Positions 23,963 through 60,543 of a stretch of 64,000 nt of DNA are shown piece by piece (position 1 is the stretch's first letter; every line of letters begins with the position of its first letter). The stretch comes from Alphaproteobacteria bacterium (lineage in GTDB: Bacteria; Pseudomonadota; Alphaproteobacteria; JAAXGF01), in assembly GCA_963555825.3 (NCBI GenBank), contig CAUVXB020000001.1, positions 2,272,001 to 2,336,000 on the forward strand, read 5' to 3'. Both the position numbers and the translations under genes were made by a program. The notes beneath the pieces were generated by a model. The model saw nothing but the letters and a program-made list of their open reading frames with translations, searched no databases and was not told the DNA's origin.

Positions 23963-26900
23963 GCAGCCAGCCGTATCGTCTGGCCACCGGCGGCGCGATC
24001 GACCGCGACCGGCCGCTCGGTTTCAGCTTCGACGGCAAACCCTACCAGGGCTACGCCGGCGACACGCTGGCCTCGGCGCTGCTCGCCAACGGCGTGCGGC
24101 TGGTCGGGCGCAGCTTCAAGTACCACCGACCGCGCGGCATCTCCAGCGCCGGGCCCGAGGAGCCGAACGCGCTGGTCGTCATGCGCGACGGCGCCCGGGC
24201 CGAACCCAACATCGCGACGACCATGGCCGAGCTCTACGACGGGCTGGTCGCGACCAGCCAGAACCGCTGGCCCTCGCTCGCCTTCGACCTGTGGTCGCTG
24301 AACAGCCTGTTGGGGCCGTTCATCCCGGTCGGCTTCTATTACAAGACGTTCATGTGGCCGGGCGCGAAGGGCTGGTTGTTCTACGAGAAGTTCATCCGCC
24401 GCGGCGGCGGCCTGGGCACCGCCTCGCGCCAGGCCGACCCCGACCGCTATGACACGGTCCACGCCTTCTGCGACGTGCTGGTGGTCGGCGCCGGCCCGGC
24501 CGGGCTTGCCGCCGCGCGCTCCGCCGGCGATGCCGGCTGTCGCGTCATGTTGGTCGACGAACGCACCACCCTGGGCGGCGCGCTGCGCTTCGAGGGTGAG
24601 ACCATCGACGGTGCCGCGGCCGGCGATTGGGCCGATGACCAGATCGTCGGCCTGGCGGCGCAAGCCGACGTCACGCTGCTGCCGCGCACCACGGCGTTCG
24701 GCTATTACGACGGCAACACCGTCGGCCTGCTGGAACGGGCCAACGACCACCTGCCGAAGCCGCCCGAGTTCGCGGCGCGGCAGCGGCTGTGGATCGTGCG
24801 CGCCCGGCAAGTCGTGCTGGCGACCGGCGCCATCGAACGGCCCCTGGTGTTCGGCAACAACGACAAGCCGGGCGTCATGTTGGCCTCGGCGGCGCAGCGC
24901 TACGCCAACCAGTACGCGGTCAAGGCGGGCGAGCGGGCGGTCGTCGGCACCAACAACGACAGCGCTTATGCCGCCGCCCTCGACCTCCACGCCGCAGGCA
25001 TCGCCGTCGCCGCCATCGCCGACGCTCGATCAGCGCCGCCGGCGGCGCTGATCGAGCGCGCACGCGCGGCCGGCATCGAGGTGCTGGTCGGCCAGGTCGT
25101 CAGCCGCGTCAACGGCCGACGCCACGTGACCTCGGCCGAGATCGGCGTGCTCGACGATGCCGGCACCGCGATCAGCGGCGGTCTGCGGCGCATTGCCTGC
25201 GACCTGGTCTGCGTCTCGGGCGGCTGGCAGCCCAGCGTTCACCTGCACAGCCAGTCGGGTTCCAGGCCGGTGTACGACGAGGCGTTGACCGCCTTCGTGC
25301 CGGGCGAACCGCGCCAGGCCCAACTCAGCGCCGGCGCCTGCACCGGCCGCGCCGACCTTGCCGATTGTATCGCCGAGGGATCGCAAGCCGGCGCACAAGC
25401 AGCGGCGGCCTGCGGCTTCGACGTGGCGGTGCCGCCGGCGCCGGCCGCCGGACCGAACGACGGCGCGCCGCTCAGGCCGCTGTGGGAAGTGCCCGAGCCC
25501 GCCGGCCATCATGGCAAGAAATTCATCGACCCGCAGAACGACGTCACCGCCGACGACGTCGTGCTGGCCCATCGCGAGGGCTACGCCTCGGTCGAACACC
25601 TCAAGCGATACACCGCGCTGGGCATGGGCACCGAACAGGGCAAGACCGGCAACGTCAACGGGCTTGCCATTATGGCCCGCGAGCGTGGCCTGACGATCCC
25701 GCAAGTCGGCACCACCACGTTCCGGCCGCCCTACACGCCGGTCGCCATCGGCGCCTTCGCCGGGCGCGCGGTGGGCAAGCATTTTCGGCCGACGCGGCTG
25801 ACGCCGATTCATGACTGGCACCTGCGTCACGGTGCGGTGATGGTCGAGACCGGCGCCTGGCTCAGGCCGCGCTACTACCCGCAAGGCAACGAAACGATCC
25901 GCGAGGCCTACATCCGCGAGGCCACCCATGTGCGCGAAAAGGTCGGCATGGTCGACGTCACGACGCTGGGCAAGATCGACGTACAGGGCCCCGACGCCGC
26001 CGAGTTCCTCAACCGGGTCTACTGCAACGGCTGGAAGACGCTGCCGATCGGCAAGGCGCGTTTTGGCCTGATGCTGCGCGAGGACGGCATCGTGCTCGAC
26101 GACGGTACGACCTCGCGTGTCGGCGAGCACCAGTACTACATGACCACGACCACCGCCAATGCGGCCGGGGTGATGACCCACCTGGAGTATTACCTCCAGG
26201 TGGTGTGGCCCGAACTCAAGGTTCACGTCACCTCGATCTCCGAGCAATGGGCGCAGATCGCCGTCGCCGGGCCGCGCGCGCGCGCCGTGCTCGAGGCGGC
26301 GATCGACGGCATCAATCTTTCCAACGAGGGGCTGCCGTTCATGGGCGTCGCCGACGGCTGGCTCAAGAGTGGCATCCCGGCGCGCGTTTTCCGCATCAGC
26401 TTCTCGGGCGAGCTGGCCTACGAGATCGGCGTGCCGGCGGGCCACGGCGAGGCCGCCTGGCAGCAAATCTACGACGCCGGCCAGGATATGGAGATCATCG
26501 CGTACGGTCTCGAGGCGCTGGGTGCGATGCGCATCGAGAAGGGCCACGTCGCCGGGCCCGAGTTCGACGGCCGCACCACGCTGGAGGACCTCGGTCTCGG
26601 CCGCATGGCCAGCACCAAGAAGCATTTCATCGGCCGCGCCATGCTTGGCCGCGAGGGCCTGTTCGACCCGGCGCGGCCTAAACTGGTCGGTCTCGAATCG
26701 GTGAGCGGCGTCCCGTTGCGCGGCGGCTCGCAGATCGTCGAACAGGCCAAGCCGAACGGTGCCGGGAAAATGCCGATGCTCGGCCACGTCACTTCGACGA
26801 CGTACAGCCCGGTGCTCGGCAAGAACATCGCGCTGGCCCTGGTACAGGGCGGCCTGGAGCGCGAGGGGCAGATGCTCTATGCGGCGCATCCGCTGCGCGG

Positions 26901-40952: not shown

Positions 40953-41179
40953 GAATATTCTCACCGTGTGATTCGCGTTTCGCCGATTGTAGCACGACAG
41001 GCCGGGTGCGCAGTAGGGGCCGCTTTGCGATCCGGGGCACATTGCAGTATCCACGTCCGGTTCATCGCCCTTGTTTACAGCGATCCGTGCCAATGATTTC
41101 CGTGCTTTAGGCTGCGTCCCTGTTATGTTACAGTCAATACTGTCTGTATCGCACCCGGTTCCTTGGACACAAGTTTGTC

Positions 41180-42091
41180 TCATGCGGCGGGCCTGAGTGA
41201 CATCGCGGTGTGCCACGCCTGACGAGCTTGAGCGGGGCTCAGGTAGCCGTTCTTCTCCACGATCCACTGGGCATTGTACTGTTCGACGAACCCGCGGACG
41301 GCGTTCCGCAGCTCCGCGATGTTGCGGTAGATGCGGCCATGGATGATCTGTTCCTTGAGCGTGCGATTGAACCTCTCGGCGACGCCGTTGGTCTGGGGCT
41401 GTTCGACGAAGGCGTAGGACGGCTGGATGCCCCAGAACTTGATCTGGTTGGTGAAGTGGTCCGACAGATACTGGGAGCCGTGATCCATCCGCAAGGCCAG
41501 CCCCCGCGCCGCACCGGCGGAGGTCGAGGCATACAGCCTCGCAAGCCCCATGGAGATCGGCTGAAGGGCGGCGAAGCGGTCGCCTCGCTTGCACACATGC
41601 CAGCCGACGCACTCGGCGTTCCAATGCTCGATGGCGGTGAATATCCAGCCCCAGCCGTCGTCCACCGTGAACACCCGAACGCCGTCCGTGCCCCACATGA
41701 GGTTGGGGGCATGGGTGATGATCTCACCGACATGGGGATTTCCGCCACGGCGGCGGCAGCGATGGGGCGAGAGCAGGTTGTTCTCGCGCATCACCCGGAG
41801 CCCCCGCTTGCGGGAAACACGGATGCCACGACAGACCCGAAGCCGAGCCCAGACCTTGCGGTGTCCCTCGCCCTCCCAGGGGGATGCCTCCAGGTCGGCC
41901 TCGATGGCCACCAGCAGAGCCTCGTCCGAGATCGAGGGCTTCGGTCCCCGGCGCTTTGCTGGTGGGCGCTCAGCGGTGGCCTGCTGCCGGGATTTCATGG
42001 CGTAGAACGAGGAACGGGCAAAACCCCAGGCCGCACAGACCCGCTGGAGGCCGTAGGCCAAACCCGTGCCGGGAGAGGTGGCGGCACTCAT
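41180..42091 (-). CDS. IS3-like transposase OrfB (rve/DDE)
   Basis: WGTDG, RMDHGSQY, NGVAERFNRTLKE. Confidence 0.92.
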   Translation of the reverse strand: MSAATSPGTGLAYGLQRVCAAWGFARSSFYAMKSRQQATAERPPAKRRGPKPSISDEALLVAIEADLEASPWEGEGHRKVWARLRVCRGIRVSRKRGLRVMRENNLLSPHRCRRRGGNPHVGEIITHAPNLMWGTDGVRVFTVDDGWGWIFTAIEHWNAECVGWHVCKRGDRFAALQPISMGLARLYASTSAGAARGLALRMDHGSQYLSDHFTNQIKFWGIQPSYAFVEQPQTNGVAERFNRTLKEQIIHGRIYRNIAELRNAVRGFVEQYNAQWIVEKNGYLSPAQARQAWHTAMSLRPAA

Positions 42092-42491
42092 CGCCGCGAC
42101 CTCCGCCGCCCCAAAGGGCCGGACGTCTCCGTCTTGGCCTCCAGCAGTTCCACCTGCATGATCAACTCCCCGATCCGCTTCATGGCGATGTCCAGTTCCG
42201 CCTTCACCGGATCGCCCTTGCGTTCCTTGAGCGAGGCATCGATCCCGGCGATCGCCTTCTCACGCCACTGCTCGAGCCGGAAAATCTCCACGCCCAACTG
42301 CCGCGACAAAAGTTCCACCGGCTCGCCACGCAAAAGCCGCAGGGCAACCTCACGCTTGCGCGTCACCGTCCACCGCTGGCCAAGTCCCAGAGGGCCTGCC
42401 GGCGAAACCTGGCCCGGGGAAAAGTGGACGAGCCGGCTCGCCCTCGTTTACCACAGGCCATCCGCAACTTTGTTCTCAAAATTGTCGGTCA
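42088..42491 (-). pseudogene. IS3-like OrfA of the first tandem copy, 5' part degraded
   Basis: Matches 43379-43810 at the 3' end; small deletions at 42400-42500. Confidence 0.75.
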
Positions 42492-42544
42492 CACTCCTTG
42501 GACACTTCGATGCCAAGGAAACGACACCCGACCTTGGAAGCCGC

Positions 42545-43382
42545 GGCGGGCCTGAGTGACATCGCGGTGTGCCACGCCTGCGAGCTTGTGTCCCTCGCCT
42601 GGGCATTGTCTGTTCCACCCGCGGACGGCGTTCCGAGCTGCGATGTTGCGGTAGATGCGGCCATGGGATCGAGCGTGCTTGAATCGGGACGCCGTTGGTC
42701 TGGGGCTGTTCGACGAAGGCGTAGGACGGCTGGATGCCAGAACTTGATCTGGTTGGTGAAGTGGTCCGACAGATACTGGGAGCCGTGATCCATCCGCAAG
42801 GCCAGCGGCGGAGGTCGAGGCATACAGCCTCGCAAGCCCCATGGAGATCGGCTGAAGGGCGGCGAAGCGGTCGCCTCGCTTGCACACATGCCAGCCGACG
42901 CACTCGGCGTTCCAATGCTCGATGGCGGTGAATATCCAGCCCCAGCCGTCGTCCACCGTGAACACCCGAACGCCGTCCGTGCCCCACATGAGGTTGGGGG
43001 CATGGGTGATGATCTCACCGACATGGGGATTTCCGCCACGGCGGCGGCAGCGATGGGGCGAGAGCAGGTTGTTCTCGCGCATCACCCGGAGCCCCCGCTT
43101 GCGGGAAACACGGATGCCACGACAGACCCGAAGCCGAGCCCAGACCTTGCGGTGTCCCTCGCCCTCCCAGGGGGATGCCTCCAGGTCGGCCTCGATGGCC
43201 ACCAGCAGAGCCTCGTCCGAGATCGAGGGCTTCGGTCCCCGGCGCTTTGCTGGTGGGCGCTCAGCGGTGGCCTGCTGCCGGGATTTCATGGCGTAGAACG
43301 AGGAACGGGCAAAACCCCAGGCCGCACAGACCCGCTGGAGGCCGTAGGCCAAACCCGTGCCGGGAGAGGTGGCGGCACTCAT
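42545..43382 (-). pseudogene. IS3-like OrfB of the second tandem copy, 3' part degraded
   Basis: Matches the 41180-42091 protein up to YASTSA, then many small deletions. Confidence 0.8.
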
Positions 43383-43810
43383 CGCCGCGACCTCCGCCGC
43401 CCCAAAGGGCCGGACGTCTCCGTCTTGGCCTCCAGCAGTTCCACCTGCATGATCAACTCCCCGATCCGCTTCATGGCGATGTCCAGTTCCGCCTTCACCG
43501 GATCGCCCTTGCGTTCCTTGAGCGAGGCATCGATCCCGGCGATCGCCTTCTCACGCCACTGCTCGAGCCGGAAAATCTCCACGCCCAACTGCCGCGACAA
43601 AAGTTCCACCGGCTCGCCACGCAAAAGCCGCAGGGCAACCTCACGCTTGCGCGTCACCGTCCACCGCTGGCCAAGTCCCAGCGGGCCTGCCGGCGAAACC
43701 TGGCCCGGGGAAAACGTGGACGAGCCAAGCTCGCCCTCGTTTACCACAGGCCCATCAACAGCAACTTTGTTCTCAAAATTGTCGGTCATGTTCCGGTCCT
43801 CCTTGGACAC
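43379..43810 (-). CDS. IS3-like OrfA (HTH + coiled coil)
   Basis: RKREVALRLLRGE...RLEQWRE, KRIGELIMQVELL; stop overlaps the OrfB start (ATGA). Confidence 0.88.
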   Translation of the reverse strand: MSKEDRNMTDNFENKVAVDGPVVNEGELGSSTFSPGQVSPAGPLGLGQRWTVTRKREVALRLLRGEPVELLSRQLGVEIFRLEQWREKAIAGIDASLKERKGDPVKAELDIAMKRIGELIMQVELLEAKTETSGPLGRRRSRR

Positions 43811-43967
43811 TTCGATTAAGCCAATTCTGTGTCCAAGGAAATCGGGTCCGACTCACAGTCAATACTGTCGATACTGCGAGCGACGCTGTGGGAAACGTAC
43901 GTGAAAGTTCGCGCCCGGCGCAGTGTGTCGACGTCGAGAGTCCGATCACCTGCGTCAGGATGACAAG

Positions 43968-44435
43968 ATGCTCCGCAAATTAGCCACCATCATCGGCGTT
44001 GCGATGCTTTTCGCGCTGCCGGCGAGCGCCGAGAATGACAGCATCGAGGTCGCCATCAACAAGGCCCATCTCATTCAGCTCGACGTGGATGCGAACGTCG
44101 TGTTGATCGCCAATCCGGAGATCGCCGACGTCGCCGTCGAATCGCCACGCGTCATTTTCCTGCTCGGTAAGGCGCCCGGCGAAACGTCGCTCTTCATTCT
44201 CGATGCAGATGGCAACGATTTGGTGCGCGCCGAGGTCATCGTCACTGCCGATATCGGCGGCCCGGCCGAGCCGATGGCGGACATGATGACCAGTTCCGAA
44301 CCGATGCCGATGATGACGTCTGGATCTTCGGCGCCGAAGTCGAAGGAGCGCGACGTGACGATCTATCGCAACGTCAGTTCGGAGACGACCGTGACCTGCT
44401 CGCCCGAATGCGGAGGGTCCGGAAGCACGCAATAG
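43968..44435 (+). CDS. Exported pilus-formation N-terminal domain protein (secretin N-domain-like)
   Basis: Signal peptide; VLIANPEIADV...LLGKAPGETSLFILD parallels the CpaC N-domain; C-terminal CSPEC. Confidence 0.82.
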   Translation: MLRKLATIIGVAMLFALPASAENDSIEVAINKAHLIQLDVDANVVLIANPEIADVAVESPRVIFLLGKAPGETSLFILDADGNDLVRAEVIVTADIGGPAEPMADMMTSSEPMPMMTSGSSAPKSKERDVTIYRNVSSETTVTCSPECGGSGSTQ

Positions 44436-44565
44436 AGTTAGCGCAAAGGTTGGTTGGGCGGCGCCGCACAGGAAATCTGCGTCAACAGCAGACGGCGCCT
44501 CGTATCGCGAACATCAGACGACTTCGCATCGACGCCAGCCACGGTATCGGGGGGATGGTTAGCCA

Positions 44566-45432
44566 ATGAAAGTTCTCGTCGCTTCGAGCGACAGGTTGTT
44601 CGCCAGATTGGCTGCCAAGAAGCTCGAGAGCTGGGGCCATCGCATCACCGCGACGTACGACGGCAACGAGGCCCTCGATCAAATCAAGCGTGAGCCCTAT
44701 CGTATCGTCATCGCCGATTGGGACTTGGCGGGCATCACCGGGCCCGAGCTGTGCGTGAAGATCCGCGAACTCAAGCGCACCCGCTACACCTATGTCATCA
44801 TCTATGAGAAGGCCCACGATGCGGCAGACCACGATGCCGACAAGGACCAGCTGATGACCGGCCTGCAGGCCGGCGCCGACGATTATCTGAGCCGGCCGTT
44901 CAATCCACTCGAACTGCAGCTACGGCTCAAGAACGCCAAGCGCCTGCTCAACCTCGAGGACGAGTTGCGCGAGGGCCCGGGCACCGACACGATGACCGGA
45001 GTCGTGAACCAATCGAGCTTCCGCCAGTTCTTCCGCGTGATCCTAGCCGAAACCGAGCGATCGAAGGCGCGCGGCGCGCTGATGTACGTCCGCGTCGACA
45101 ACTTCCAGGAAGGTTTCGCGGCCCATGGTTACTCGCCGATGCAAAAGCTGATGGTCGAGATCGCCAAGATCCTCGAACGGACGCGCCGCGACAGCGACCT
45201 CGTTTCGAAGACGTCGGAGGACGAATTCTGCCTGATGCTGCAGACCACTTATTGGGACAAGTGCGAAGGCGTCGCCGAGAAGATCATGCTTCAGACGAGG
45301 AATCTGTCGGTCATCATCGACGACATCGAGCTGCGCGCCGAGATCAGCATCAGCACGGTCAACTTCCCGATCGATGAAATGTCGTCGGACGACGTTCTCG
45401 CCAGCACCGACCGCATCCCCTACCAGCCGTAG
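44566..45432 (+). CDS. Response regulator with degenerate GGDEF domain
   Basis: REC (IADW, GADDYL..PF) + DTMTGV, RDSD-LVSKT-SEDEF. Confidence 0.85.
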   Translation: MKVLVASSDRLFARLAAKKLESWGHRITATYDGNEALDQIKREPYRIVIADWDLAGITGPELCVKIRELKRTRYTYVIIYEKAHDAADHDADKDQLMTGLQAGADDYLSRPFNPLELQLRLKNAKRLLNLEDELREGPGTDTMTGVVNQSSFRQFFRVILAETERSKARGALMYVRVDNFQEGFAAHGYSPMQKLMVEIAKILERTRRDSDLVSKTSEDEFCLMLQTTYWDKCEGVAEKIMLQTRNLSVIIDDIELRAEISISTVNFPIDEMSSDDVLASTDRIPYQP

Positions 45433-45436
45433 CCGT

Positions 45437-46018
45437 CTACGGCGGGGTGATGGCCTCGGTGGCGCGAAGCGCGGAGGTCGAGAACGCCGGTAAAGTTATC
45501 GTCGACGGCACGCCCGGCAGGATATCGAGCACAATCAACGGGTGGGTGACTCCGGTCAGAGTGACGGTGACCAGCGCCGTGACGACACCGGTGAGGGACG
45601 CGGCGTCGATGCCGCTGGCGACATAGCCGATCTGGATGTTGTTGTTCGTGATGTCAGGGAAGACCGCCGTCATGGCGTTTCTCATCGCCGCGAAGTTGTT
45701 GCCGGCGCCACTATCCACGGTACTGCCCGTACAGGACACGGCTCCATTGGCGATCGCCGAACAGAAGAAACTGTTCGTCCGCAACGAGTTCATTGAACCG
45801 AGCGGAGTTTGGATCAGGGACAGACGGCTGCCGCGCCGCGTCGCCTCGCTGGCGCGGTGGTAATCGAACAGGATCAGCCCGAACTCGAGAACACCGATGG
45901 TGAAAACAAGAAGCGCCGGGAGGATCAAGGCGAATTCGATCGCCACCGCGCCGTCGTCGCGGCGGGCGAATCGCCGCAGGAACCGTCCACGTTCAGTTGC
46001 CGATGTATGCTTGCTCAT
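45437..46018 (-). CDS. tadE: TadE-like pseudopilin
   Basis: GAVAIEFALILP, ATRRGSR. Confidence 0.88.
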   Translation of the reverse strand: MSKHTSATERGRFLRRFARRDDGAVAIEFALILPALLVFTIGVLEFGLILFDYHRASEATRRGSRLSLIQTPLGSMNSLRTNSFFCSAIANGAVSCTGSTVDSGAGNNFAAMRNAMTAVFPDITNNNIQIGYVASGIDAASLTGVVTALVTVTLTGVTHPLIVLDILPGVPSTITLPAFSTSALRATEAITPP

Positions 46019-46463
46019 GATCCACGACGATGTTGAAGGAACTGAGGCCGGCGAATGTAAAGAGACCCGGTATTAGCGGGGTATACGGCACCGTCGCGAC
46101 GACCCTGATGACGTCCAGGCCGGTGACGCCGCCGCCGGAGTAGGTCCGCACCACGTCGATAACGACGTCCGCGCCCGTAACCGACCAGCCGTCCACCAAA
46201 AAGGGCGCGGTGCCTGCGGTATTGCCGTATTTGACGAGGTTCTTGACGCTCGTCGTCTGCGCGGCGGTGATCGGGTTGTCGCTGCGCACGGCCAGCCCGA
46301 CGCCGGCGCGGACGCCCTTTTCGACCGCGTTGGACTGCGCCAGCACGCGGCCGAATTCGATCGCGCCGAGCAGGAACAGCATGAACAGCGGGACGAGCAG
46401 GCCGAACTCGATCGCCGCGGCGCCGCGGCGATCGCGCCCGAGCCTATTGAATAAGTTGAGCAT
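45993..46463 (-). CDS. tadE: TadE-like pseudopilin
   Basis: RRGAAAIEFGLLVP, GVRAG. Confidence 0.88.
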   Translation of the reverse strand: MLNLFNRLGRDRRGAAAIEFGLLVPLFMLFLLGAIEFGRVLAQSNAVEKGVRAGVGLAVRSDNPITAAQTTSVKNLVKYGNTAGTAPFLVDGWSVTGADVVIDVVRTYSGGGVTGLDVIRVVATVPYTPLIPGLFTFAGLSSFNIVVDHEQAYIGN

Positions 46464-46561
46464 TGTTGATGATCGTCGTTGAGTTGGCGACGGTGCGAGA
46501 TCGGATGACCTCGAGGTGAGTCGGACCCGATTTCCTTGGACACAGAATTGGCTTAATCGAA

Positions 46562-46993
46562 GTGTCCAAGGAGGACCGGAACATGACCGACAATTTTGAG
46601 AACAAAGTTGCTGTTGATGGGCCTGTGGTAAACGAGGGCGAGCTTGGCTCGTCCACGTTTTCCCCGGGCCAGGTTTCGCCGGCAGGCCCGCTGGGACTTG
46701 GCCAGCGGTGGACGGTGACGCGCAAGCGTGAGGTTGCCCTGCGGCTTTTGCGTGGCGAGCCGGTGGAACTTTTGTCGCGGCAGTTGGGCGTGGAGATTTT
46801 CCGGCTCGAGCAGTGGCGTGAGAAGGCGATCGCCGGGATCGATGCCTCGCTCAAGGAACGCAAGGGCGATCCGGTGAAGGCGGAACTGGACATCGCCATG
46901 AAGCGGATCGGGGAGTTGATCATGCAGGTGGAACTGCTGGAGGCCAAGACGGAGACGTCCGGCCCTTTGGGGCGGCGGAGGTCGCGGCGATGA
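46562..46993 (+). CDS. IS3-like OrfA
   Basis: Same protein as 43379-43810. Confidence 0.88.
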   Translation: MSKEDRNMTDNFENKVAVDGPVVNEGELGSSTFSPGQVSPAGPLGLGQRWTVTRKREVALRLLRGEPVELLSRQLGVEIFRLEQWREKAIAGIDASLKERKGDPVKAELDIAMKRIGELIMQVELLEAKTETSGPLGRRRSRR

Positions 46994-47901
46994 GTGCCGC
47001 CACCTCTCCCGGCACGGGTTTGGCCTACGGCCTCCAGCGGGTCTGTGCGGCCTGGAGTTTTGCCCGTTCCTCGTTCTACGCCATGAAATCCCGGCAGCAG
47101 GCCACCGCTGAGCGCCCACCAGCAAAGCGCCGGGGACCGAAGCCCTCGATCTCGGACGAGGCTCTGCTGGTGGCCATCGAGGCCGACCTGGAGGCATCCC
47201 CCTGGGAGGGCGAGGGACACCGCAAGGTCTGGGCTCGGCTTCGGGTCTGTCGTGGCATCCGTGTTTCCCGCAAGCGGGGGCTCCGGGTGATGCGCGAGAA
47301 CAACCTGCTCTCGCCCCATCGCTGCCGCCGCCGTGGCGGAAATCCCCATGTCGGTGAGATCATCACCCATGCCCCCAACCTCATGTGGGGCACGGACGGC
47401 GTTCGGGTGTTCACGGTGGACGACGGCTGGGGCTGGATATTCACCGCCATCGAGCATTGGAACGCCGAGTGCGTCGGCTGGCATGTGTGCAAGCGAGGCG
47501 ACCGCTTCGCCGCCCTTCAGCCGATCTCCATGGGGCTTGCGAGGCTGTATGCCTCGACCTCCGCCGGTGCGGCGCGGGGGCTGGCCTTGCGGATGGATCA
47601 CGGCTCCCAGTATCTGTCGGACCACTTCACCAACCAGATCAAGTTCTGGGGCATCCAGCCGTCCTACGCCTTCGTCGAACAGCCCCAGACCAACGGCGTC
47701 GCCGAGAGGTTCAATCGCACGCTCAAGGAACAGATCATCCATGGCCGCATCTACCGCAACATCGCGGAGCTGCGGAACGCCGTCCGCGGGTTCGTCGAAC
47801 AGTACAATGCCCAGTGGATCGTGGAGAAGAACGGCTACCTGAGCCCCGCTCAAGCTCGTCAGGCGTGGCACACCGCGATGTCACTCAGGCCCGCCGCATG
47901 A
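46990..47901 (+). CDS. IS3-like OrfB DDE transposase
   Basis: Differs from 41180-42091 by one residue (WSFAR vs WGFAR). Confidence 0.92.
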   Translation: MSAATSPGTGLAYGLQRVCAAWSFARSSFYAMKSRQQATAERPPAKRRGPKPSISDEALLVAIEADLEASPWEGEGHRKVWARLRVCRGIRVSRKRGLRVMRENNLLSPHRCRRRGGNPHVGEIITHAPNLMWGTDGVRVFTVDDGWGWIFTAIEHWNAECVGWHVCKRGDRFAALQPISMGLARLYASTSAGAARGLALRMDHGSQYLSDHFTNQIKFWGIQPSYAFVEQPQTNGVAERFNRTLKEQIIHGRIYRNIAELRNAVRGFVEQYNAQWIVEKNGYLSPAQARQAWHTAMSLRPAA

Positions 47902-49733
47902 GACAAACTTGTGTCCAAGGAACCGGGTGCGATACAGGATGACCTCGAGGTAGATGGTGAAATCACTCGGGTCGCCGGCGGGTTCGGTGAGGAACATGTC
48001 GACGATGTCGATGAAGTCATAGTCGATGAATGTCGTGCCCCCCACTGGAACCGCCGGGCAATCGACGACCGCCACCCTGAAGACTCGCCGCCGCGGGTCG
48101 GCCGGATCGGGGACCGGCGTGGTCACCGGCACGCCGCTGTCCGGAAGGTTCACCCCCGGCGGGTTGATCGTGGTGAACGTCGCGGGTATATCGACGGCAT
48201 CTCCGTCGTCGTCGACCAACGGATAGATCGTCCGGCAATCCGTCCCGCCGCCGCCGCTCGCGCAATTGGTATTGTCGCGCGCGAAGTCTTCGTCGAGTTC
48301 GTAGAGATACATCTGGTAGCGGGTATAGTTCACCAGATCGGTTACCGCCTGGGCCGTTATCAACCCGTCGCCCACGTGCTCGGTATTCCAGTACGTCGTC
48401 GGGTCCCAATCTGCGTCGCCGATATAGGGCGTGGCTACGGTGATGAATTTCGCATCGCGCGGATACGTGACGATGTTCTCCGCCGGGTTCCTTATGGCAG
48501 CGGGGCCTACGTCGAAGCGCGAGTTGATGCCACGGTTGACTTGTTGCGCGGCGATGCCGGTCTTGGTCTGGATCCCCAGCCCCGAGCAGGCAGAATTACC
48601 GACTGCCGCCAAGAGGTCCCGCACATCCGGAGCGCCGCAGTCGCCGGGGGCGAGCGACAAACAAACCAGGGCGAAGTTGCCGGCCGCCGGCGATCCGGAC
48701 GGATTCCTGAGCTGAACCTGCTGGCCGGCGCTGGTGTCAGCACGGAGGTCCGTATTGTAGGGGGAGCCCTCGCCGTTGCACGCCATCAGCGCGGGCGGGT
48801 CGCAGATGACCGGCGCCGAAACGCAGGCCGCCGTCGCATCGACGTCCGAGAAGCTCCGTGCCGACGCGCTGCTGAGCGCCGCCAATGCGGGTTGCAACAA
48901 CAGCGCCACGGGGCGCGAAACGAGCGTCACCCGCATCGCCAGCGCGCTCGCGTCGACCGTCGTGGTGCCCGTCAGGGTGGAGTCGGTGTAGAAAATGATG
49001 CCGTTCGTCCCCGTCCCGATGGTAATCGCGTCGGTGCCCGACGTGACGTTATAATCGCTCTTCGGCACCGTTGCGTTGCGCGCGACCGCGTCGGCGCGCG
49101 TCGTCGCGCCGGATTGACCGTCGAGCTGGATCGAGGCCGACAGGCACGCCGCCGTCGGCGGCGTTCTGCATCTGGGAACGCACGACGGCGAGGCGGCCGA
49201 CATCGAGGGCCAGGACCAGGGCGCCCATCAACGCCACGCCGGCGAACGCGACATAGATCGCGACCGCGCCACCGGCGACCGCGCCACCGGCGGCCGCGCC
49301 GAAATCGCCAAGCCGCTTGACCAACCCGTTTAGGGACATGCGGGGAATTACCATGCTTCTCCTAACCTAATGCCGACACTATGGCACGACGCATCCGGCG
49401 GTGCTCAAGTGCTGACGTTCCGGCGAATACGATCATCGTGTCGTCCGTTTCCGTGCGTCGATCGGCGGTTTCCGCACCGCGAAACTCTTCTCCGACGATC
49501 GCCTGCCCCTCGCGCACAACAATTGGGCAGGCCGCCATCACGGTGGACCGCACCGGCGGGTCACCGTCCCCCGATGACCCCAGGCAAAACCTGGACAAAC
49601 ACACGCGCAGCGCATTTTTTATAGCAAGAATCGCCGAATTTTTCAAGTGGCAGCCGTCACACCTGACGGCAATTAATCCCGATGGCGCCGGCGACGGGCC
49701 ACTGACGCCGACGCCGGGGCACTGGCGCGACGG

Positions 49734-55313: not shown

Positions 55314-58571
<3,258 letters not shown>

Positions 58572-59767: not shown

Positions 59768-60022
59768 ATGAGTGTCGAAGCCGTAGCTCTCGACTACCAA
59801 CATAGGCCGGTGGAGGCCTCGGGACACCCCCTGGATGACCGTGAGATCGCCGATCGAACGCGGCGCGCCCTCACCGAGCTTCAGGACGCCCTCGACGCGG
59901 CGGTTCTGGCCGGCCTGATCGTCGAGCCCAGTTTCACGCGCATCGAAAATCGGCTGACCCAGTGCGGCGCGCGCATCGATTCATTCGTCGCCAGGGTCCA
60001 TGTCCTGCGCCGCTTGACCTGA
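59768..60022 (+). CDS. Small hypothetical protein, paralog 1
   Basis: RBS GAGGAG; 84 aa; strongly similar to 60283-60543. Confidence 0.8.
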   Translation: MSVEAVALDYQHRPVEASGHPLDDREIADRTRRALTELQDALDAAVLAGLIVEPSFTRIENRLTQCGARIDSFVARVHVLRRLT

Positions 60023-60171
60023 AACGGGGGGTACGCCCCCTTCACTTCGTCTCATTCCCCCGCCCAACACCAAGCATAACTGCTCCTTGAGATGAAACGA
60101 TGTGACGCCGGGTCCGGCGTTGCGCGGCGTTTCACGTCGATGGATCGGCCGATTCATCAATCTGCCGATTC

Positions 60172-60195
60172 GTCATCCAAACGGATGATGACGGT
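60172..60195. promoter_or_regulatory. Palindromic motif upstream of paralog 2
   Basis: GTCATCCAAACGGATGATGACGGT (TCATCC-N4-GGATGA). Confidence 0.5.
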
Positions 60196-60282
60196 CGAAT
60201 GAAATTCGCCAATACTCACGCCAACATCGAGCAACGCGGATCACCGCGGCTGGTAACAAGTTCAAGAGAGGATTACAGCGCC

Positions 60283-60543
60283 ATGGCCAAGTCGAATTCG
60301 AACGCGATACCGCTCCACGAGGTCACCGAGGCCGATTATCGTGTCGGGTACCAGGACGATCGCGACATCGCCAACCGCATTCTGTCCGCCATGACCGAGG
60401 TCCAGGAAGCGATGGACCGGGCAGTCCTCGCCGGCATTATCGTCGAACCCAATTTCGCGCGCATCGAAAACCGGCTGACCCAATGCGGCGTGCGCATCGA
60501 TTCGTTCGTTTGCAAGATCGGCCTTTACCGCAAGCTCGCCTGA
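60283..60543 (+). CDS. Small hypothetical protein, paralog 2
   Basis: 86 aa; shares DR.IA.R...A.TE.Q.A.D.AVLAG.IVEP.F.RIENRLTQCG.RIDSFV. Confidence 0.8.
   Translation: MAKSNSNAIPLHEVTEADYRVGYQDDRDIANRILSAMTEVQEAMDRAVLAGIIVEPNFARIENRLTQCGVRIDSFVCKIGLYRKLA

Follow-up and report, generated by a model that had tools for sequence, protein, structure and literature searches.

The window, the whole 64,000-nucleotide stretch of alphaproteobacterial DNA analysed here, carries an insertion sequence (IS) flanked by 14-bp target-site duplications (TSDs). We consider it probable that this is an active IS3-family element which makes an OrfAB protein by frameshifting and cuts its targets with a heritable 14-bp stagger. 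Its anatomy is ordinary for the IS3 family, and its repeat length lies outside that family's stated range.

The initial annotation, made from the letters of the window, had described a 1420-bp element with TG...CA ends and 14-bp duplications at two independent sites, and the sequence bears this out. At locus 1, exact copies of the 14-mer GGATGACCTCGAGG abut the element, which starts with TGAGTCGG and ends with GATACA. At locus 2 the flanks are exact copies of an unrelated 14-mer, CAGTCAATACTGTC. The features are as follows.

46444 to 49203, minus strand: host gene of a Tad/Flp pilus cluster, 3' end interrupted at locus 1
46503 to 46516, no strand: left 14-bp target-site duplication, locus 1
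46517 to 47936, plus strand: IS3-family insertion sequence, 1420 bp; ends the same in near-identical copies
46517 to 46543, plus strand: IRL, 27 bp, from the tip to the GGACAC core
46562 to 46571, minus strand: second, inverted IR core on the inner side, which overlaps the Shine-Dalgarno of orfA and is retained by just some of the relatives
46583 to 46993, plus strand: orfA, 136 aa from ATG, putative HTH and heptad-repeat helix
46963 to 46969, plus strand: slippery heptamer C_CCT_TTG, read in frame with orfA; predicted site of the -1 frameshift to OrfAB
46978 to 47006, plus strand: conserved hairpin GAGGT/ACCTC, its loop containing the ATGA overlap
46990 to 47901, plus strand: orfB, 303 aa, DD(35)E catalytic domain (D136, D203, E239; K246)
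47911 to 47936, minus strand: IRR, 26 bp, tip TGTA in nearly all relatives
47937 to 47950, no strand: right 14-bp target-site duplication, locus 1
41131 to 41144, no strand: 14-bp duplication, locus 2, IRR side
41145 to 43855, minus strand: head-to-tail element pair, locus 2, with an intact orfB at 41180-42091
43856 to 43869, no strand: 14-bp duplication, locus 2, IRL side

A T comes next at both window repeats, which would allow a reading of 15 bp; the fixed element ends together with the other copies set the length at 14 bp (not 15). IRL is one base longer than IRR, and its tip varies among relatives (TG/TA/TC). As first noticed, the left end holds the motif CCTTGGACAC twice upstream of orfA, at 46534-46543 and, inverted, at 46562-46571; the inner copy is a possible autoregulation site for OrfA or OrfAB. 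An alternative orfA start, an upstream GTG at 46562, would give a protein of 143 aa. A scan of the element for sigma-70 promoters and terminators found none. Recent activity had been proposed from OrfB copies one residue apart, and this agrees with what was found: the intact OrfB copies of loci 1 and 2 differ at a single residue (S24/G24), and 14 full-length near-identical copies, including the window copy, show 0-5 nucleotide differences.

The second locus had been taken for one copy of the element. Its 14-bp flanks stand, but they enclose a 2711-bp insert that aligns to two element copies head to tail. The outer parts of this insert are identical to the element except for single substitutions; at the junction (about 42380-42810) both inner ends are lost and many small deletions are present. 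The degraded junction is probably an artefact of the assembly consensus. The alternative reading is a real dimer, and IS3-family dimers would also fit. Elsewhere in the window, diverged direct repeats and a perfect 36-bp palindrome lie among 57855-58482, 59830-60509, 1851-2018/9324-9495 and 25023-25058.

Repeat lengths were then tabulated over related elements from several phyla, with OrfB 44-100% identical. The GTDB sample comprised the best 80 of 539 confirmed loci and is dominated by a small number of MAGs; for plasmids, loci were taken from most of the 27 records that matched strongly. Automatic end calling on 114 OrfB hits left 18 without a callable end; the remaining 96 represented 93 distinct insertions, and subtraction of the 7 that belong to a short-repeat branch (see below) gave a long class of 86. 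In this class, 62 of the 86 distinct insertions with both ends had repeats of 14-16 bp (56 exact 14 bp, three 14 bp with one mismatch, two 15 bp and one 16 bp), one had a 3-bp repeat and 23 had none. A 4- or 5-bp repeat was found in none of the 86, and lengths of 3-5 bp thus do not predominate among the relatives. Long repeats accompanied 12/15 insertions at 95-100% OrfB identity, 27/37 at 85-95%, 20/30 at 55-70% and 3/4 at 40-55%.

About 18 different elements have a long repeat. By record title, they come from Alpha-, Beta- and Gammaproteobacteria, Geothermobacter, Acidobacteriota, Nitrospirota and Binatia, and they are found in MAGs as well as in complete plasmids (loci L002, L004, L005, L006 and L008/L094). 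Beyond these, 14-bp repeats also flank window locus 2 and a Rhodobacter copy interrupted by IS21; no repeat was seen at two more Rhodobacter end pairs or at the truncated loci L105-L107. Chance does not produce such lengths, as a repeat of at least 12 bp was seen in 0 of 7310 mismatched left/right flank pairs. Of 17 other IS3/IS481-like elements scanned as a control in the same loci, five had repeats, all of 3-5 bp (IS2K and L104, 5 bp; L094, 4 bp; L061 and L091, 3 bp), and the other 12 had none. Recombination is not supported as the cause of the repeat-less insertions, since their orphan flanks matched none of the other collected copies.

Several individual copies are of separate interest. 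At L045 (9502-10929) the element apparently lies inside an opposite-orientation copy of itself with a 16-bp repeat, and an apparent self-insertion, also in opposite orientation and with a 14-bp repeat, is present on the Rhodobacter plasmid NZ_CP017782.1 (55003-60409, L094). The three imperfect 14-bp repeats (right flanks of L019, L077 and L039) have their mismatch at base 1 or 2 beside IRR. Two elements (L006, 1082-2621; L067, 5176-6778) carry 150-200 extra non-coding bases between orfB and IRR and retain 14-bp repeats. Two variants with nearly identical ends (L014 and L039; 99% and 90% OrfB identity to the window) occur together in several alphaproteobacterial MAGs, where a 1430-bp form may be a hybrid.

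To place these elements, we built an IQ-TREE tree of 41 proteins of the clade, which represent 107 hits after reduction at 95% identity, together with 19 outgroups; no named IS1202 protein was among them. The clade was supported at 100/98. Inside it, a branch of 10 proteins (support 92/86) from plasmids of Solidesulfovibrio, Desulfohalobium, Roseomonas and Methylobacterium makes short duplications, ten bases or one helical turn fewer than 14 bp: eight of its ten insertions have exact 4-bp repeats, one matches at 3/4 positions and one has none. For these counts IRL was placed by eye, always 28 bp from the core, and two further copies lacked an end. The chance rate of a 4-bp repeat was 36 in 7310 mismatched flank pairs. 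A second copy in L093 (AP031463.1, about 24800-26200) has 4-bp flanks, CCGC and GCGG, that are reverse complements and not direct repeats. The 14-bp and 4-bp branches form one clade (43-47% OrfB identity to the window protein) and have their frameshift signal and the structure of their ends in common. When the tree is rooted on IS2, two length changes are required, either a gain followed by a loss or two gains.

Could one transpososome cut at either 4 or 14 bp, so that the classes reflect bias or sampling and not a fixed property of the protein? Mixed cutting has a precedent in IS481EU-7_TV, for which 4-, 5-, 15- and 24-bp TSDs are described (PMC10045372). Moreover, the Rhodobacter element, the nearest neighbour of the 4-bp branch (99/96), groups with that branch yet has repeats of 14, 14 and 15 bp. 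Against this, a 4-bp repeat was found in 0 of 86 long-class insertions and a long repeat in 0 of 10 short-branch insertions, and we regard mixed cutting as unlikely.

We compared 20 long-class with 10 short-branch proteins, class being assigned per element, so that three long and two short rows lack a perfect repeat of their own. The clean differences, from long to short, were one extra linker residue near position 111, W/Y149 to A/S, V237 to C/I and Q248 to N; two other flagged columns were variable or poorly aligned. Among 120 homologues found for the Solidesulfovibrio protein and compared as protein sequences, no fewer than 115 also have the longer linker. An AlphaFold model (pLDDT 85.8) shows the linker as a loop of low confidence ahead of the first core strand, with W149 on the second strand and both V237 and Q248 on the helix bearing E239. 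IRL length (27 or 28 bp) was rejected as a class separator, as the Rhodobacter element has 28 bp with 14-15-bp repeats. The linker residue and the three core positions are, on sequence comparison, candidate determinants of the stagger only; they may reflect mere ancestry, because the 4-versus-14 switch is seen once inside the clade. A bolder proposal, which we hold tentatively and consider doubtful, is that the clade is an undescribed sixth IS3 subgroup, spread over several phyla and cutting at 14 bp, in which the linker residue, with W149 and the two helix residues, toggles between 14 and 4 bp, a step of exactly one helical turn.

Family membership was assessed from both proteins and ends. 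OrfB has rve domains with D136, D203, E239 and K246, the K seven residues after the E. The IS3-family traits present are two overlapping ORFs, with orfB in the -1 frame of orfA, and terminal IRs of the form 5'-TG...CA-3' in the window element (TA or TC at IRL in some relatives); the typical 3-5-bp duplication is absent from the element and most of the clade, and only the 4-bp branch fits it. Against the NCBIfam IS3 model NF033516, which is built on OrfAB, OrfB alone scored 148.7 bits (cut-off 160) and nine relatives scored 145-168, two of them above 160. OrfB reached 84.9 bits against the IS481 model NF033577 (cut-off 224) and 16.7 bits against the ISNCY_2 model NF033594 (cut-off 250). OrfA matched HTH_Tnp_1 at E=0.002, below the cut-off, and its heptad pattern was recognized by eye. 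Plasmid matches comprised 25 records at E < 1e-30 with 43-60% identity; a spread of the other matches at 1e-8, mostly annotated as IS3 family, was 22-29% identical.

In the tree, the clade was joined to IS2 at 95/86, with a long-branch warning, and its nearest tested relatives were thus IS2-subgroup elements and not IS481. By these sequence measures, the element belongs to the IS3 family, in a clade of its own that is a sister of the IS2 subgroup rather than a member of it. Protein-name look-ups returned generic names only. A PDB sequence search gave integrases for all of the 60 matches listed of 112, and Foldseek returned TnsB, IstA and retroviral integrases at 11-19% identity, with nothing bearing on the stagger; no solved IS3-family transposase was among the listed structure matches.

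IS481 elements have one ORF and are not known to use a frameshift. The element might nevertheless be an IS481- or IS1202-type transposase split into two ORFs, given that members of those groups make repeats of about 15-17 bp (PMC10045372; bioRxiv 2022.12.17.520857). The tree leaves some room for this, since its deep branches lack resolution, four IS481-like rows fall on the side of IS2 plus the clade, and IS1202 is represented by no named protein. The two-ORF layout with a conserved -1 signal argues against it, as do the IR sequences, which resemble those of IS2, and the model scores: the IS3 model outscored IS481 in 10 of 10 clade members scanned, and ISNCY_2 gave only 16.7 bits. We therefore judge a split IS481 or IS1202 transposase to be quite unlikely and retain the IS3-family assignment.

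Both window targets contain short palindromes, which the initial annotation had put forward as a feature of the sites, and long repeats could in principle come from site-specific or homology-driven insertion into a preferred (for example palindromic) target, or from a repeat that was already there. Over 57 targets, palindromicity was at background: the mean number of self-complementary pairs was 1.75 vs 1.91 in the background, and inverted repeats of at least 4 were present in 23% vs 22%. Thus, of the distinct IS3-related subgroup with a widely staggered cut that had been proposed, the subgroup (100/98) and the long stagger (62/86) survive, and the palindromic targets do not. An ATCG...TA context common to both window sites was likewise not upheld across the 57 targets. 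A weak A/T bias was found at positions 6 and 9 (51/70 for close and 31/42 for distant elements, vs about 0.41-0.45; p 8e-8 and 1e-4, respectively, for positions picked after looking), and the 57 14-mers had no consensus beyond it. This symmetric bias fits a two-fold complex that would bend the central 4 bp of the target.

The host gene bears on a pre-existing repeat. Translated in frame, it gives ...YLEVI before the element and LEVIRSRT...Q* after it, with the stop overlapping the next tadE-like gene; LEVI is read in both repeat copies, as expected from duplication of a single 14-mer, and the host frame runs through one copy. Taken together with the target statistics, this makes a preferred target or a pre-existing repeat very unlikely, and a 14-bp stagger remains the preferred reading. 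An assembly artefact is hardly credible: the degraded junction at locus 2 and other apparent indels in the contig could suggest one, but 14 bp recurs in unrelated records, including complete plasmids and the short-read isolate assembly L062, and an IS3-family element in the MAG locus L061 gives 3 bp. The interrupted gene lies in a Tad/Flp pilus cluster (43971-49354) around a response regulator-GGDEF gene, with a pilus N-terminal domain protein, two TadE-like genes and a TadG-like gene; the latter is IS-interrupted and also seemingly frameshifted near a short tandem repeat at 49260-49290.

OrfA and OrfB had been described as joined by an ATGA overlap. The overlap is present, but it is not their sole link, as a conserved slippery site accompanies it. 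The heptamer C_CCT_TTN was found in the orfA frame of all 38 elements examined, 24-27 nt before the NTGA overlap, and the -1 frame is open through it in each. All four variants of this heptamer shift in E. coli (PMC4066793); the same paper describes A-rich slip motifs as dominant in IS1/IS3 elements, and C_CCT_TTN is not among the frequent motifs it names. In 22 aligned elements, a stem that begins 8-9 nt downstream of the heptamer and whose loop encloses the overlap is conserved. Four of its seven pairs have changes on both sides, and the 12 cells with both sides changed were equalled in 0 of 500 shuffles, with slid controls lower; doubly coding sequence can mimic covariation, which, together with relatedness, weakens this evidence. 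A single-sequence fold of the window hairpin was not significant (z -0.31). The hairpin is a candidate frameshift stimulator that may also hide the orfB Shine-Dalgarno. Because the conserved C_CCT_TTN signal comes with a covarying hairpin, the OrfAB fusion is likely the transposase, and the likely scheme is OrfAB made by -1 frameshifting plus coupled OrfB.

Transposition may then proceed as follows. OrfA would be the normal product, and a -1 ribosomal frameshift at C_CCU_UUN, aided by the hairpin, would yield the OrfAB transposase, as conservation of the signal suggests. By analogy with IS2, in which IRR acts as donor and the longer IRL is the end attacked (PMC3219604), copy-out-paste-in would follow, with the invariant IRR presumably attacking the variable IRL to form a circle. 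Both 3'-CA ends would then attack the target. The two active sites would join them 14 bp apart on the same DNA face, one helical turn wider than a 4-bp stagger, and gap repair would leave the duplication, whose 14-bp length is what is observed. The stagger would be a heritable property of the transposase, with one sub-branch using 4 bp.

The likeness to IS2 extends to the sister position in the tree, the IR sequence, the orfA/orfB arrangement with a -1 signal, an IRL one base longer than IRR and a non-canonical IRL tip (IS2 features described in PMC3219604). In contrast, IS2 duplicates 5 bp, against 14 (or 4) bp in the clade, and shifts at A6G (PMC3219604), where the clade carries C_CCT_TTN; the best IS2-annotated phage match was 29.6% identical, and the PRK09409 score was 44.5 against a cut-off of 597. 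ISGsu7, an IS3-family element of Geobacter sulfurreducens with a two-subunit transposase (PMC2882325), is probably a named member of the clade: a depositor gave this name to the orfA of a Roseomonas relative, which sits in the 4-bp branch. For that reason ISfinder probably includes a member of the clade, and a long repeat may already be given there for it.

Length classes about one helical turn apart are also described for the IS1202 family (ISAba32, 5-6 bp; ISTde1, 15-17 bp; IS1202, 27-28 bp), where they track transposase subgroups and indels (10.1101/2022.12.17.520857). According to that paper IS1202 transposases have a single ORF, unlike the orfA/orfB of the clade, which scores far below the ISNCY_2 model. 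IS481 and IS481EU share TG..CA ends, an integrase-like DDE domain and discrete TSDs of 4-6 and about 15 bp, but in IS481EU lengths can be mixed within one family (PMC10045372), which was not seen in the clade. For IS3-family TSDs Kojima and Bao give 3, 4 or 5 bp; they put some IS481 members at about 15 bp, IS1202 in three ranges and IS481EU at 4/15/25 bp, and they note the helical-turn spacing and call its mechanism unknown (PMC10045372). The 4/15/25-bp pattern is thus already known for IS481, IS1202 and IS481EU, and our literature search, with subscription journals and supplements largely outside its reach, found no report of 14-bp repeats in IS3-family elements.

Target-duplication length serves IS classification and annotation. 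Because 3-5 bp is the range stated for IS3 (PMC10045372), end-finding that assumes short repeats misses elements of this kind. The element is currently spreading within its hosts, and its insertion in the window disrupts a pilus gene. Steps of about 10 bp recur among related DDE enzymes, and the account in PMC10045372 offers no clue to their mechanism. The 14-bp and 4-bp sister branches are a natural pair for testing how cut spacing is set; only four alignment positions cleanly separate them, and therefore residue swaps can test the determinant directly.
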